A DNA stretch of 32,000 bases from Methanobacterium sp. PtaB.Bin024 (GCA_002067065.1 MVPY01000043.1:102334-134333); one strand, 5' to 3'; counted from the first letter of the stretch, positions 26,609-30,402 are shown. A program made the numbers and translations. Notes: generated by a model from the letters alone, not told the origin.

Positions 26609-27031
26609 TTATTCTTCTTTTGTAAGATCTTTGGAGATGGTGAGCCGGTTTTTACCATTCTTGAATTCATAGTCAACAGAACTTGTCAATGTTTTTAAGA
26701 AGTGAATACCCAAACCACCAGGGCTTCTTTCTTCAAGAGAAGTATTTAAATTAGGAGTATCAACGAGAAGTGGATCGAACGGTTCTCCACGGTCTTCGAT
26801 TTGGATTTTGATCTTCTGGTCTTCCCTCCAGCAGGAGAGGTGGATCTGACCGGTATCGTGGGTGTATCCATGTAGGATAATGTTTGAGGCGACCTCATCT
26901 GTTGCCAGTTGAAGTTGAAAAACACTTTTCTCATCCAGATCAAACTTCCGGGCACTTTCAGTAACAAAATCGGCTATTTGGGATAAATTCTCTAATTTTG
27001 CATCCACATTCAGTTTGAATTCATTTTTCAT
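26609..27031 (-). CDS. RsbW/SpoIIAB-type anti-sigma-like serine kinase (HATPase_c_2), stand-alone
   Basis: 140 aa with the N-box LATDEVASNIILHG, then EDRGEPFD and GGLGIHFL. Its ATG immediately follows the TGA of the upstream phosphatase (TGAATG). Confidence 0.85.
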   Translation of the reverse strand: MKNEFKLNVDAKLENLSQIADFVTESARKFDLDEKSVFQLQLATDEVASNIILHGYTHDTGQIHLSCWREDQKIKIQIEDRGEPFDPLLVDTPNLNTSLEERSPGGLGIHFLKTLTSSVDYEFKNGKNRLTISKDLTKEE

Positions 27032-28399
27032 TCACCCATTCCTCCTAAGGACCAGGAGAGTGATGTCATCGGCCTGAGGTGTGCCAGATGCGAAATCATA
27101 AACCTCATCAATAATCTTGTTTTTCAGATCCTCAACTTGGAGGTTATGGTTTTTTTGGATAAGTTTAATCAGATGTTCCTCACCAAACTGGGCTTCCTGT
27201 TTATTCACAGCTTCGGTAACTCCATCAGTGTATAAAACCAGAAGATCCCCTGGATCTATGTTTATGGTTTTTTCATCCATTTTAAGACCTTTCATGGCAC
27301 CTAAGACCACACCACCAGTGCTTAACTTGATAATATCTTTAGTTTCATTTTTCCATAGGAGTGGTGGGTTGTGCCCTGCGTTCACAAAGGTGAGTTTGTT
27401 GTTTTCATCATCTAGAACACCATAAAAGAGAGTTACAAACATGTCTGAATGAGGTTCTTCGTTGATGAAATTATTGACACTTTCTATCATCCTCCCCACC
27501 CCTGGATTGCGGCATGCTTTGGCCCGTAAGAGGGTACGTGAAAATGCCATGAAAAGTGCTGCAGGGATCCCTTTACCGGAAACATCACCAATTGTAAGAC
27601 CGGTTTGTTTGCCAGAGATGGGTATAAAATCATAAAAGTCTCCCCCAACTTCCTGGGCGGGTATACTGCTTGCAGCCAGTTGATAGTTTTCAATATAGGG
27701 TATGGTATGGGGTAGGAAGCTTTCCTGGATTTGATGGGCTATTTCCAGTTCTTTTTTCTTTCTTTCAAGTTGAGCATGGAGTTTGTCCCGTTCCTTTTTG
27801 GTTTGCCGCTCCTTAATGAGGTTGGTAATCATGAAGGCAAAGATGAACATTCCCACTGCATTAGCCAGTATCATGGGAACAAATAAATTTTCAACCACAG
27901 CTAAGGCCTGGGCAAAAGGAGATGCCAGTATCAACGCCAGCATCATATGGAAGGTTTCCATGAGAATGGAGAAAAGAACAGCACCCCAAATACCAATGAA
28001 ACGTTTCTTGTTGGCAAGATAGATGATACCTGCAAATAATCCTGCTAGAACTGTTGACAGAGAGCATGGGACACAGGTGAATCCTCCCATGGTCAAACGA
28101 TGCAAACCTCCAATTAAACCAGCACCCAAACCAACAACAGGACCCCCAATCAGCCCAGCCACCATAGGCCCCAGATCCCGTACATTAGCTATGGCGCCGA
28201 AGATATTAACTCCAGAGTAGGAGCCGTAGATTGAAATAGCGCCGAATATTAAAATAAAGATTATTTGATTCTTGATGGTTAATTTACCCTCAAGAACTTC
28301 GGTGAAGTATTTGAACCGACTCAGGAGATAGGCTATGACTATGATAACACAGACTTTCTCCACCAGATCTGTGAAAAGAGTTATACTTAGGGGGTCCAT
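27032..28399 (-). CDS. membrane-bound PP2C (SpoIIE/RsbU-type) phosphatase with a 5TMR-LYT-like sensor domain
   Basis: The N-terminal ~195 aa are polytopic. DLGPMVAGLIGGPVVGLGAGLIGGLHRLTMGG resembles the LytS-type 5TM receptor domain. A coiled linker follows. The PP2C motifs are GGDFYDF, GDVSGKGIPAALFMA, LVLYTDGVTEA and ADDITLLVLRR. Confidence 0.88.
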   Translation of the reverse strand: MDPLSITLFTDLVEKVCVIIVIAYLLSRFKYFTEVLEGKLTIKNQIIFILIFGAISIYGSYSGVNIFGAIANVRDLGPMVAGLIGGPVVGLGAGLIGGLHRLTMGGFTCVPCSLSTVLAGLFAGIIYLANKKRFIGIWGAVLFSILMETFHMMLALILASPFAQALAVVENLFVPMILANAVGMFIFAFMITNLIKERQTKKERDKLHAQLERKKKELEIAHQIQESFLPHTIPYIENYQLAASSIPAQEVGGDFYDFIPISGKQTGLTIGDVSGKGIPAALFMAFSRTLLRAKACRNPGVGRMIESVNNFINEEPHSDMFVTLFYGVLDDENNKLTFVNAGHNPPLLWKNETKDIIKLSTGGVVLGAMKGLKMDEKTINIDPGDLLVLYTDGVTEAVNKQEAQFGEEHLIKLIQKNHNLQVEDLKNKIIDEVYDFASGTPQADDITLLVLRRNG

Positions 28400-28532
28400 G
28401 ATAATCTGATTTTTTTAATTATTTATTTTGGGTTGGAGATGATTTTTTGGAGATTAATACCTTGAATTGATTAACATTATATTTGATTAAATTTTGTCAC
28501 GTTTTGTTCTGTTACTTGGAATGTTATTGGTT

Positions 28533-28865
28533 TTAGAAACTGGCGATAGCTTCCTTGTCTGAATCGTAAATCTGGAAGAGCTGGGTAAAACCAGCGATTT
28601 CAAAGACTTCCAGAACATAATGTTGTAAGCAGGATAATTTTAAGGTGCCCCCCATTTTATTCAGCTTTTTGAGGGATGACAACATCACTCTTAAACCAGA
28701 ACTACTGATGTAGTCCACTCCAGAAAGATCAGCAACTATCTGAACTTTGCCTGAGTCAATGATTTCATTGAACTTACCTTCAACCAGGTTCGAGTTATAG
28801 GCATCCAACCGACCGTTCAAAAATACTACTTCCACGTTATTTACACTTTTTCCTGTCATTTCCAT
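28533..28865 (-). CDS. STAS-domain anti-sigma-factor-antagonist-like protein (RsbV/SpoIIAA family)
   Basis: ADLSGVDYISSSGLRVMLSSLKKL matches the SpoIIAA/RsbV phospho-serine region (DLS.V.f.DS.GL). ATG 28865 (MEMTGK...) is preferred because GGGAG lies 8 nt upstream; the track start is 28889. Confidence 0.9.
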   Translation of the reverse strand: MEMTGKSVNNVEVVFLNGRLDAYNSNLVEGKFNEIIDSGKVQIVADLSGVDYISSSGLRVMLSSLKKLNKMGGTLKLSCLQHYVLEVFEIAGFTQLFQIYDSDKEAIASF

Positions 28866-28914
28866 TTGCACACTCCCTATCAATAACATTATATTTTATA
28901 TTTAACTGTTTAAG

Positions 28915-30402
28915 TTAGCTGGAGTGGGTTTTCCATTCCTGCACTACATAATCAAATATTTCTTTAGCAAATTCAGAGTACACATCTACGGTTTCAGGAT
29001 CAAAAGCCACATTGTTAAGATATTGTAGGCGTAGGGCATCACCGTCCAGGTATTCTGGCATCAGACCACAGAAGAAGAATCCCATTTTTTCGATTTCAGG
29101 ACATAGTATGGCAGTGTTGGGATTCTTTAAGGGGATATCCAGAACTATGAGTTCAACCTTTTTCTCTTTCAGATCCTGAACATGAAGCTTTAGTTCATCC
29201 ATAAAGTCTGTTCCGTACGTGTTAACCCTTAAAAAAGCACTGGCCATTTCTGGTAAAAAGTGAGAGTGAATATCAGAATGAAAAGCTAATTTCACGTTAT
29301 CAGGATCTGCTATTTTTAAAACTCGTTTTAATCCAATGTGTTTGTAAATCTTCCTGAGCGTATGCTGATGTTTATATGGTAAAAAGACTGTTTGCTCCTG
29401 GTCTGGTGCTGCGAGCACGTAAAAGAGAGCTACAGTCCGGCGGATCCCATCATCCTCAGTTTTCATCTTTTTAAAGATAGCCGTAGGTGGAGAATGAGCC
29501 AACACAAAACCAGTCTCCTTGGCCCCCATTTCCACATTTGACTTTTGAGAGGCCACATGAACTGTTACTGCTCGGCTATAAAGGCCTAAAATACCTTTAG
29601 CTGCTACTTCTTTCATCATCATTCTCTTCATTTTTGGGAAAAGTCCCCTTCCACGATAACGGGGGTCAACTGCAGCCAGGCCAGATTCTCCCACATGATC
29701 CTCAGGAGTTTCTAGGAAAACTCCCAGATGACCCACAATTTCATCCTGTTCATTTACAGCTACACAGGAAGTTACCGTTCCAGATTTTATTAAAGATGCG
29801 AATTTCTCAGGATAATAAATCTCTTCATGAGGATAAGTGTAACCATAAACACGATATATTAACCTAGCCAAGGATACTGTTTCATCTGGACGCATTAAAC
29901 GTAAATTAACCATTTCTGATTTAGGGGCCAGATCTTCTTTAGGAGATATGGGAGTATTTGGAGGAGATTCCAATTCATTAACTGATTCAAAGGGGAAATT
30001 TTTAACCAGTTCTACCACCTTCCCTTTTTTCCCCAAATATTTACTTTTAATCTCATCAGTACAAGCTCTCATTAATTTAACCCCAATATCAGAGGTTTCT
30101 TCTTCTTTTAGTCGCTGGAGGTTAAAGGGTATACCCTGATCTCGTATTGTGACTCTAAAACAAGTAGGTTCACGGTGAATTTTCACCTTATAATATCCAT
30201 GTTCCCCTGGTTCGTAGGCGTGTTCAATGACATTATGGCATGCTTCTTCAGTTGCCAGCTCTAAATCCCTCACAGCAGATTCACTCAACCCATAACCTGA
30301 AGTCACATCTCTAACCGCGCGTAAAACTATGGGGAGCAGTTTTAATTCTGCTTTTACCTTTAATGAGGCAAGTGTCTCTTTATCTGTGGTTTCAGGGGGC
30401 AT
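28915..30402 (-). CDS. fusion of an RsbW-like HATPase kinase domain with a GNAT acetyltransferase and a second GNAT-like domain
   Basis: aa ~20-135 read LELATEEACHNVIEHAYEP...VTIRDQGIPFN, an RsbW-type N-box and G1 box. The GGxG lid looks degenerate (SDIGVKLM). aa ~165-305 form a GNAT domain with the acetyl-CoA motif A VDPRYRGRGLFPKM (nt ~29644-29661). aa ~335-495 look like a second GNAT-like fold (...EIEKMGFFFCGLMP...). Confidence 0.8.
   Translation of the reverse strand: MPPETTDKETLASLKVKAELKLLPIVLRAVRDVTSGYGLSESAVRDLELATEEACHNVIEHAYEPGEHGYYKVKIHREPTCFRVTIRDQGIPFNLQRLKEEETSDIGVKLMRACTDEIKSKYLGKKGKVVELVKNFPFESVNELESPPNTPISPKEDLAPKSEMVNLRLMRPDETVSLARLIYRVYGYTYPHEEIYYPEKFASLIKSGTVTSCVAVNEQDEIVGHLGVFLETPEDHVGESGLAAVDPRYRGRGLFPKMKRMMMKEVAAKGILGLYSRAVTVHVASQKSNVEMGAKETGFVLAHSPPTAIFKKMKTEDDGIRRTVALFYVLAAPDQEQTVFLPYKHQHTLRKIYKHIGLKRVLKIADPDNVKLAFHSDIHSHFLPEMASAFLRVNTYGTDFMDELKLHVQDLKEKKVELIVLDIPLKNPNTAILCPEIEKMGFFFCGLMPEYLDGDALRLQYLNNVAFDPETVDVYSEFAKEIFDYVVQEWKTHSS

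Follow-up and report, generated by a model that had tools for sequence, protein, structure and literature searches.

The known systems nearest to the locus analyzed here include the RsbU-RsbV-RsbW-σB and SpoIIE-SpoIIAA-SpoIIAB-σF modules of Bacillus subtilis, in which a PP2C phosphatase, a STAS protein and an RsbW/SpoIIAB-type kinase act on a sigma factor. Archaea have no sigma factors. We examined a 32,000-nucleotide stretch of Methanobacterium sp. PtaB.Bin024 (GCA_002067065.1, MVPY01000043.1:102334-134333; hereafter the window), which contains four intact open reading frames (ORFs), A, B, C and D, arranged head to tail on the minus strand between positions 26609 and 30402. The locus draws on the same three protein families as the B. 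subtilis modules, has the predicted phospho-Ser at the same motif position of its STAS protein (B), and carries its input domain on the phosphatase (C), as RsbU and SpoIIE do. Unlike the σB and σF modules, it has no cognate sigma factor, it has a second RsbW-like domain fused to a tandem GNAT (A) in addition to the stand-alone kinase (D), and its sensor is of the 5TMR-LYT type. Its sequence makes it very probable that the locus is a working STAS phospho-switch. We propose, tentatively and at a little short of an even chance, that A is the output of this switch, in a partner-switching relay that would end in an enzyme rather than in a sigma factor.

Homologs of such proteins have been recorded in archaea before. 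Anderson et al. (2009) reported SpoIIAA, SpoIIAB and SpoIIE homologs in Methanomicrobiales, remarked on the lack of sigma factors in archaea, gave the target as unknown and stated that such genes are absent from other methanogens (PMC2686161), a statement that the Methanobacterium locus contradicts. Leahy et al. (2010) described Methanobrevibacter ruminantium mru0512-0516, an acyltransferase/STAS/phosphatase/kinase cluster with its genes in the same order as those studied here, beside a phosphopantetheinyl transferase gene, and suggested regulation of a nonribosomal peptide synthetase (NRPS) (PMC2812497). No Methanobrevibacter protein is among the top 120 listed matches of A or of the STAS protein, and mru0512 is at most a possible member of the A family. 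Both reports are annotation only, and neither proposed an RsbW-GNAT fusion as an output. More recently, 5TMR-PPM fusions were noted to be prevalent, and mainly to be found, in archaea (2024, PMC11109136), and RsbRSTX modules were said to exist in 'even some archaeal species' (PMC9237108). On protein phosphorylation in archaea, a review from 2016 knew of just one archaeal PPM that had been studied and made no mention of STAS or anti-sigma proteins. An earlier reading of this stretch, made from the sequence alone (the original prediction), had called the output of the module undescribed. The puzzle of a sigma-type module in a host with no sigma factor is in fact already in print (PMC2686161; PMC2812497; PMC11109136); what is new is a cassette with an RsbW-GNAT partner. 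We found no description of an RsbW-GNAT fusion, or of an acetyltransferase as the output of a partner switch, in the open-access literature.

The predicted STAS switch and its sensor-phosphatase

Profile searches support the four domain types where the original prediction had placed them: HATPase_c_2 in A and D, Acetyltransf_1 in A, STAS in B and SpoIIE in C (Table 1). Because every domain match in the four proteins exceeds its Pfam gathering score and the four-gene set is kept in other genomes, the domain content and conservation of the locus are far beyond chance. The nearest relatives of all four proteins come from Methanobacterium (M. petrolearium, M. ferruginis and M. formicicum), and the latter two species share the locus in synteny.

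B matches Pfam STAS (E 1.9e-19) and the NCBIfam model TIGR00377, 'anti-sigma factor antagonist' (78.5 bits, cut-off 53.45), and aligns with the structures of TM1442, RsbV and SpoIIAA. Its true start is likely to be MEMTGK at 28865, given the GGGAGTG in front of it and the annotated length of 110 aa in both M. ferruginis and M. formicicum. The string DLSGVDYISSSGL, the phospho-acceptor context singled out at the outset, is present in B. In the motif Y-I-S-S55-S-G-L-R-V, the G-L anchor aligns with that of M-D-S-S/T-G-L in SpoIIAA and RsbV. Ser55 is invariant in 24 of 24 aligned STAS proteins of A-anchored loci (that of the window included), and also in the STAS proteins of trios that have no A. 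The A-linked STAS proteins of archaea and bacteria have in common the motif Y-I-S-S-(S/A/M)-G-L-R-V with its invariant Ser, which indicates that the partners are orthologous across domains of life.

D (Pfam HATPase_c_2, E 4e-26) aligns end to end with SpoIIAB, with no insertion or deletion in the ATP lid. Its N box (DE..SN), G1 box (DRGEPFD) and G2 box (GGLGI) are kept in all orthologs.

C carries the four Asp-containing PP2C motifs that had been read from the sequence (GGDFYDF, GDVSGKG, LYTDGVTEA and ADDITLLVL), and its PP2C domain aligns with the structures of Rv1364c, RssB and SpoIIE. The N-terminal 5TM-5TMR_LYT domain is an addition to the earlier description. There is no histidine-kinase transmitter in C, in which the PP2C domain is the cytoplasmic part; the protein has its sensor domain in common with the LytS family and is not a LytS-family kinase. 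ANME-1 is among the archaea with homologs that are about 60% identical, and the 5TMR-PP2C family is widespread in archaea. The membrane domain shares 35% identity with the first 200 residues of Escherichia coli BtsS and contains an NxR motif (N72-V-R74). Four BtsS residues implicated in pyruvate sensing (R72, R99, C110 and S113; PMC10653868) align with R74, R101, C112 and S115 of C, and three of the four equivalent positions are invariant in the five sequences aligned.

Two details of gene layout are as first described, namely the abutting stop codon of C and start codon of D (TGAATG) and the AT-rich spacer between B and C. The module was also said to be complete and intact, and it is: all catalytic and phospho-acceptor motifs are present, and comparison with orthologs in four Methanobacterium genomes gives ratios of nonsynonymous to synonymous substitution rates (dN/dS) of 0.04-0.17 for all four genes, with dS saturated, so that the module is maintained by purifying selection. 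A sigma factor cannot be the target, as had been argued from the archaeal host; jackhmmer searches with RpoS and FliA returned no sigma-70-family ORF in the 32-kb window, a search that very divergent extracytoplasmic function sigma factors could escape.

Table 1. Positions of the four genes, their domains and the intergenic spacer within the window
Feature	Position (strand)	Length	Assignment
Gene A	28915..30402 (-)	495 aa	RsbW-like + tandem GNAT fusion; proposed output enzyme
A residues 9-135	29998..30378 (-)		RsbW/SpoIIAB-like GHKL domain, shortened ATP lid
A residues 166-330	29413..29907 (-)		Canonical GNAT domain; Pfam Acetyltransf_1 + Acetyltransf_9
A residues 337-495	28918..29394 (-)		Second, divergent GNAT-like domain; acetyl-CoA motif not recognized
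Gene B	28533..28865 (-)	110 aa	STAS switch protein; ORF reaches upstream ATG at 28889 (118 aa)
B Ser55 codon	28701..28703 (-)		Predicted phospho-acceptor, equivalent of SpoIIAA Ser58
B-C spacer	28400..28532 (-)	133 nt	24% G+C; possible internal promoter region
Gene C	27032..28399 (-)	455 aa	Membrane sensor-phosphatase, 5TMR-LYT + SpoIIE PP2C; proposed input
C residues 30-193	27821..28312 (-)		5TMR-LYT (LytS/BtsS-type) transmembrane receptor domain; Pfam 5TM-5TMR_LYT, E 6.3e-49
C residues 263-453	27041..27613 (-)		SpoIIE/RsbU-type PP2C domain; Pfam SpoIIE, E 4.9e-53
Gene D	26609..27031 (-)	140 aa	Stand-alone RsbW/SpoIIAB-type Ser kinase (predicted)

The RsbW-GNAT protein and its gene neighborhood

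The AlphaFold2 (AF2) model of the whole of A (pLDDT 81.5) has three domains. The first matches Pfam HATPase_c_2 (residues 17-134, E 2.3e-19) and retrieves SpoIIAB (1til/1l0o) in Foldseek searches, and the profile of the A family matches RsbW (6m36, E 9e-15) and SpoIIAB. In a 15-sequence alignment (A1), E53 and N57 of the N box and the G1 box D88-x-G90-x-P-F are invariant. The distance from the G1 Asp to the second Gly of the G2 box is 19 residues in A versus 28 in D and SpoIIAB (9 shorter), and the G2 box reads S-D-I-G in Methanobacterium, with the first Gly replaced, versus S-G-L-G in most bacterial homologs. Since the residues of the ATP site are kept but the lid is shortened, this domain is more likely to be a receiver than the main kinase.

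The central domain is a GNAT (Acetyltransf_1, residues 186-271, E 9.5e-6, with a score of 26.3 bits where 20.7 is the cut-off) with Foldseek matches to SpeG, RimI, PaiA and others at E values of about 1e-8 to 1e-7. Members of the A family show little or no variation in its acetyl-CoA motif, R248-Y-R-G251-R-G253 (R/Q-x-x-G-x-G), and A therefore looks catalytically competent. The last domain has no Pfam match, and an hhalign comparison of the two GNAT-like halves of A with each other was not significant. Modeled alone (residues 335-495), it reached an AF2 pLDDT of 96.3, and each of the 50 matches listed by Foldseek is an acetyltransferase or belongs to an N-acetyltransferase complex (RimI, ArsN, NatC), with weak scores (best E 2.7e-4, TM-score about 0.42). 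We assign it, by the modeled fold only, as a divergent second GNAT-like domain. The original prediction had treated A as just a second kinase, and passed over the fused acyltransferase as the obvious candidate output.

Full-length homologs of A, 35-45% identical to it, are spread over many bacterial phyla, the groups including Cloacimonadota, Dehalococcoidales, Ignavibacteria/Bacteroidota, Rubrobacterales and Sumerlaeota. An exhaustive search found at least 630 clusters at 50% identity (E<=1e-30), and proteins in nearly all of the 150 best clusters listed are 450-545 aa long; the family is large and has no characterized member. Within it, a 'solo' branch from Rubrobacterales/Actinomycetota (L061-L081 in our numbering of loci) has the catalytic Glu of the N box and the G2 box replaced and retains the Asn, the G1 box and the entire GNAT part. 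This branch looks like a pseudokinase form, so that the N-domain of A can persist without kinase chemistry, as a regulatory or docking module. Two paralogous RsbW-GNAT genes lie a few kilobases apart in three loci of Dehalococcoidales or on a metagenome contig (L034, L058 and L082) and are adjacent in L058.

We compared 78 genome loci anchored on A, 39 of which extend at least 5 kb on both sides of it. Small genes for STAS and RsbW proteins lie near A in 21 and 18 of the 78 loci, respectively (15 and 14 of the 39 with long flanks), a PP2C gene in 20 (15 of 39), and all three together in 18 (14 of 39). Of the 21 STAS genes, 19 are no more than about 225 nt away from A. The full set is found in the window's own Methanobacterium clade, in about ten metagenome-assembled genomes (MAGs) of Dehalococcoidales/Chloroflexota, and in Ignavibacteria, Bacteroidota and unclassified bacteria, so the neighborhood conservation for which a search had been recommended does exist, in Methanobacterium and in several bacterial phyla. 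The order is A-STAS...PP2C-W in Methanobacterium (W being the small RsbW gene), STAS-A-PP2C-W in Dehalococcoidales, and PP2C-W-STAS-A in Bacteroidota and unclassified bacteria; because it differs between lineages, the linkage is likely to be functional rather than inherited. Two Ignavibacteria loci have STAS and A alone, with no D.

The input domain of the PP2C varies among these loci: 5TMR-LYT, a REC domain downstream of CheA/CheB, dCache-HAMP, or an S-component-like transmembrane region with HAMP. A, STAS and W remain constant while it changes. The set thus has the classic pattern of a modular signaling cassette with variable input and constant downstream partners, A among them. In jackhmmer searches with RpoS and FliA, a sigma-70-family ORF was found near 1 of 89 related loci; it is a 519-residue stop-to-stop ORF and possibly a housekeeping sigma factor. 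The puzzle had been framed as an archaeal one. Since the same cassette occurs in sigma-bearing bacteria with a sigma gene near a single locus, a non-sigma output would be a property of the cassette and not an archaeal adaptation.

A trio of STAS, 5TMR_PP2C and RsbW genes, of the same STAS and RsbW subfamilies, also occurs with no A nearby. In an ANME-1/'Halobacteriota' MAG (L085, 5650-8794) it follows a 315-aa ORF that has no Pfam match and itself follows a PspA-type cluster; in Methanobacterium sp. MBAC-LM (L086, 3217-8779) it starts 19 nt after the formate dehydrogenase genes fdhA-fdhB. The 315-aa ORF was considered as an RsbW-less A and rejected, as the two are unrelated. Unless A is encoded elsewhere in these genomes, the trio would be a portable unit, with A a partner in some lineages only. 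This bears on the suggestion that the genes form two units, A with STAS and PP2C with RsbW. The two halves are indeed separable: the length of the B-C spacer varies in orthologous loci, L006 has an additional gene between STAS and PP2C, and in L037 and L039 A and PP2C are some 2 kb apart. The portable archaeal unit, however, is STAS, PP2C and RsbW without A.

A further gene recurs near A. An acyl-CoA:acetate CoA-transferase of about 433 aa (PF02550 + PF13336), which in NCBIfam comes closest to butyryl-CoA:acetate CoA-transferase with a score under the cut-off, adjoins or lies near A in 20 of the 78 loci (10 of the 39 with long flanks). These loci are from Methanobacteriaceae, Chloroflexota and Actinomycetota, sometimes with tandem copies, and include L009, L010, L012, L014, L026, L028, L035, L044, L045, L047, L055, L061, L062, L065, L066, L069, L073, L075 and L078. 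In a second Methanobacterium clade, A and the CoA-transferase are divergent neighbors; the archaeal MAG locus L014 has the array A-STAS-PP2C-W-CoAT (CoAT, CoA-transferase), Dehalococcoidales have ...PP2C-W-CoAT, and Rubrobacterales have CoAT-A. Another Dehalococcoidia locus has thiolases, a 3-hydroxyacyl-CoA dehydrogenase and an HpaB-family-domain protein encoded on the other strand, several kilobases downstream of A. The frequency of this neighborhood suggests a role for A in acyl-CoA/acetate metabolism, where it might modify the CoA-transferase or use its product as donor, and is a possible clue to the substrate or acyl donor of the GNAT. Taken together with the residues matched in BtsS, it suggests a link between the sensing of a carboxylate or overflow metabolite and acyl-CoA chemistry.

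A proposed relay and its alternatives

In the relay that we propose, the 5TMR-LYT domain of C would control the fused PP2C domain in response to a small ligand, external or on the membrane side and possibly resembling pyruvate. D would phosphorylate Ser55 of B, and C would remove the phosphate; unphosphorylated B would leave D and dock on the RsbW-like N-domain of A, and docking would switch the acyltransferase activity of the tandem GNAT. D is favored as the dedicated kinase because it alone has the full lid and G2 box, and the N-domain of A as the receiver, since the only enzyme of the set is joined to it and kinase-dead forms of it survive elsewhere. We extend the proposal more doubtfully, as a possibility well short of even, to the family as a whole: RsbW-tandem-GNAT proteins could form a new class of signal-regulated acyltransferase, in which an anti-sigma fold has been given the new role of binding a phosphorylatable STAS protein and a pyruvate-type receptor is connected to acylation of a target in acyl-CoA metabolism, in methanogens and anaerobic bacteria. 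This would be the first concrete answer to what archaeal anti-sigma homologs regulate.

Several observations weigh against A as the output. The trio occurs with no A nearby (L085 and L086), so A is not an obligatory partner, and 57 of the 78 A loci have no STAS gene nearby, most A genes being 'solo'. In module-linked lineages the N-domain of A keeps its catalytic Glu and Asn and its G1 box, and it may be a working kinase. The CoA-transferase that points to acyl-CoA metabolism elsewhere is absent from the 32-kb window. The residues aligned with the BtsS ligand site may be common to the whole 5TMR family, and would then be no pointer to pyruvate.

The trios that have no A would be accommodated if D sequesters a non-sigma target of the archaeon (TFB/TBP, some other transcription factor or an enzyme) that unphosphorylated STAS protein would set free, A acting in parallel or simply being co-located. 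We consider this explanation unlikely, though still a serious one. In ANME-1 and MBAC-LM the trio is self-contained, with the same subfamilies and with different neighbors (the 315-aa ORF and PspA versus fdhAB), and Anderson et al. (2009) came to the same 'target unknown' conclusion for Methanomicrobiales (PMC2686161). There is, however, no candidate target gene conserved beside D; the linkage of trio and A in shuffled order in at least three lineages is left unexplained, and the RsbW-like docking domain of A would have no obvious purpose. Alternatively, A could belong to the input or feedback side, as an active second STAS kinase and/or through a GNAT that acetylates STAS, D or C, so that acetyl-CoA status would be integrated into the phospho-switch and the output would lie elsewhere. 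The invariance of E53, N57, D88 and G90 in alignment A1, and their retention in module-linked lineages, fit this arrangement, as does the CoA-transferase linkage, which would suit acyl-CoA sensing, and the STAS-A pairs with no D suggest that A may phosphorylate STAS itself. We nevertheless think it distinctly improbable: compared with known kinases the lid lacks about 9 residues, and Methanobacterium has lost the first Gly of G2; the solo A proteins, whose kinase motifs are degenerate, show the enzyme half working on its own; and the module would again be without an output.

Two other explanations carry very little weight. Regulation of secondary-metabolite (NRPS) production, as proposed for mru0512-0516, draws on the phosphopantetheinyl transferase beside that cluster (PMC2812497); the window, the loci syntenic with the module in M. 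ferruginis and M. formicicum, and the bacterial cassettes that we examined all lack genes for an NRPS, a phosphopantetheinyl transferase or MatE, and we regard the idea as highly improbable. The selection analysis largely refutes the notion, to which we give almost no credence, that the cluster is a horizontally acquired bacterial cassette lying inert or decaying in an archaeal host. Most of the A family comes from bacteria, and a midpoint-rooted neighbor-joining tree groups the archaeal A proteins as a single clade amid those of bacteria. In the complete genome of M. ferruginis NBRC 105197 (AP027738; L001/L004), moreover, the PP2C gene is split into three ORFs. But LonB is split as well, into two, in the same assembly (the split genes span 10022-11387 and 13927-15833), which suggests assembly frameshift errors rather than pseudogenes, and all four genes are intact in the window, in M. 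formicicum and in several MAGs, with the low dN/dS values given above. The G+C content of the module genes, 0.40, is close to the window average of 0.37, and the 5TMR-PP2C family is widespread in archaea. For the direction of transfer, the A clade among bacterial proteins and this archaeal breadth of the phosphatase family point different ways.

Anti-sigma homologs have stood unexplained in the annotation of methanogens since 2009 at the latest. The locus offers a testable answer because all candidate players are encoded together, the proposed output enzyme can be assayed, and the same cassette occurs in bacteria; the cassette with its RsbW-GNAT partner makes an old question experimentally tractable. 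If the relay ending in A is correct, an acyltransferase would join the short list of non-sigma partner-switch outputs, and the large A family would gain a function. Ser phosphorylation, a LytS-type metabolite receptor and acyl-CoA metabolism would also be connected, in methanogens and in organohalide-respiring Chloroflexota. If it is wrong, the locus is one more case of a known, unexplained archaeal module.

Surrounding sequence and relation to known systems

The remainder of the window is ordinary archaeal chromosome, with genes for, among others, PAN, LonB, pseudomurein-type Mur ligases, NikR, HycI and CobQ. None of the four proteins matches a PADLOC defense model. A scan of the locus for bacterial promoters and terminators gave results at or near shuffle expectation, and is of no relevance for an archaeon. 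An exact 13-mer, AAATATAATGTTA, occurs twice on the minus strand (28472-28484 and 28884-28896), with no other mismatch-free copy in the window. One copy lies in the B-C spacer, 73-85 nt upstream of the PP2C start, and the other overlaps the first ATG of the STAS ORF. We rejected it as a shared promoter or operator, as it is not kept in five orthologous Methanobacteriaceae loci; given this absence, the repeat is probably due to chance in AT-rich DNA. The B-C spacer of M. ferruginis contains about four tandem copies of GATGATATTT.

Convergent to D, and 31 nt from its stop codon, is a gene for a bacterial-type DEAD-box helicase with DeaD-dimerization and DbpA RNA-binding domains (24997-26577, plus strand), which is syntenic in M. 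ferruginis and M. formicicum. Farther away, two ORFs of 422 and 144 aa with no Pfam match (8182-9450 and 9462-9896, minus strand) lie directly downstream of a pseudomurein-type cluster (9906-16056) that comprises two Mur-ligase genes, a family-4 glycosyltransferase and an ATP-grasp enzyme. At 391-3641 (minus strand), genes for an Fe-S protein, two DsrE/F-like proteins and one DsrH-like protein are followed by those for an SBF-family transporter and an ArsR-type regulator, a sulfur-relay-like set beside a metalloid/bile-acid-type transporter in a methanogen.

Partner switches with outputs other than sigma factors are known from bacteria, among them Bordetella BtrU/V/W, Vibrio SypE/SypA and Pseudomonas aeruginosa HsbR/HsbA; in HsbR/HsbA and SiaABCD the same logic serves enzyme outputs. 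The SiaABCD system of P. aeruginosa reportedly consists of a membrane PP2C (SiaA), an RsbW-like kinase (SiaB), a switch protein (SiaC) and a diguanylate cyclase (SiaD). Its logic, in which the phosphorylation state of a small switch protein controls an enzyme, is that proposed here. The Methanobacterium locus differs in that its switch is a canonical STAS protein, its putative output is an acyltransferase with an RsbW-like domain and not a GGDEF protein, and its sensor is another one. C scores 38 bits against the NCBIfam SiaA equivalog (cut-off 700; E 6e-10), and we take the likeness to be one of mechanism only, an analogy that does not extend to orthology. STAS-only proteins have been reviewed (PMC8256260), RsbRST-type stressosome modules have varied outputs, and two 2026 reports describe further non-sigma switches (the Anabaena Hep module and CapK/CapS). 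BtrUVW, SypE/SypA, HsbR/HsbA and RsbRST are built from the same STAS/RsbW/PP2C components with outputs other than a dedicated sigma factor, but none is known to have a GNAT output or an RsbW-GNAT fusion, or to have been studied in an archaeon.

On the side of the enzyme, GNATs under signal control include the cAMP-regulated Mt-Pat/Rv0998, ACT-GNAT proteins and PatZ/Pat with its large regulatory domain. As in A, the GNAT is fused to a gating regulatory domain in Mt-Pat/Rv0998, ACT-GNAT and PatZ, and these enzymes are classically tied to acyl-CoA/acetate enzymes. PatZ is the subject of PMC12184503. In contrast to Mt-Pat and PatZ, the regulatory domain of A is an RsbW/SpoIIAB-like GHKL domain, proposed to be controlled by a phosphorylatable protein and not by a small ligand, and A has a second, divergent GNAT-like domain. 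On the side of the sensor, LytS, BtsS and YpdA have the same 5TMR-LYT membrane domain and NxR motif; their output is a histidine kinase, whereas that of C is a PP2C. A, C and D score far below the equivalog cut-offs of the NCBIfam RsbW, SpoIIAB, SpoIIE, RssB and SiaA models, and the scores of the module against the RsbW, SpoIIAB and SpoIIAA equivalog models are likewise far below theirs. As we read its sequence, the locus is not a sigma-regulating RsbU/V/W module in the strict sense, but it is like one up to the output step.

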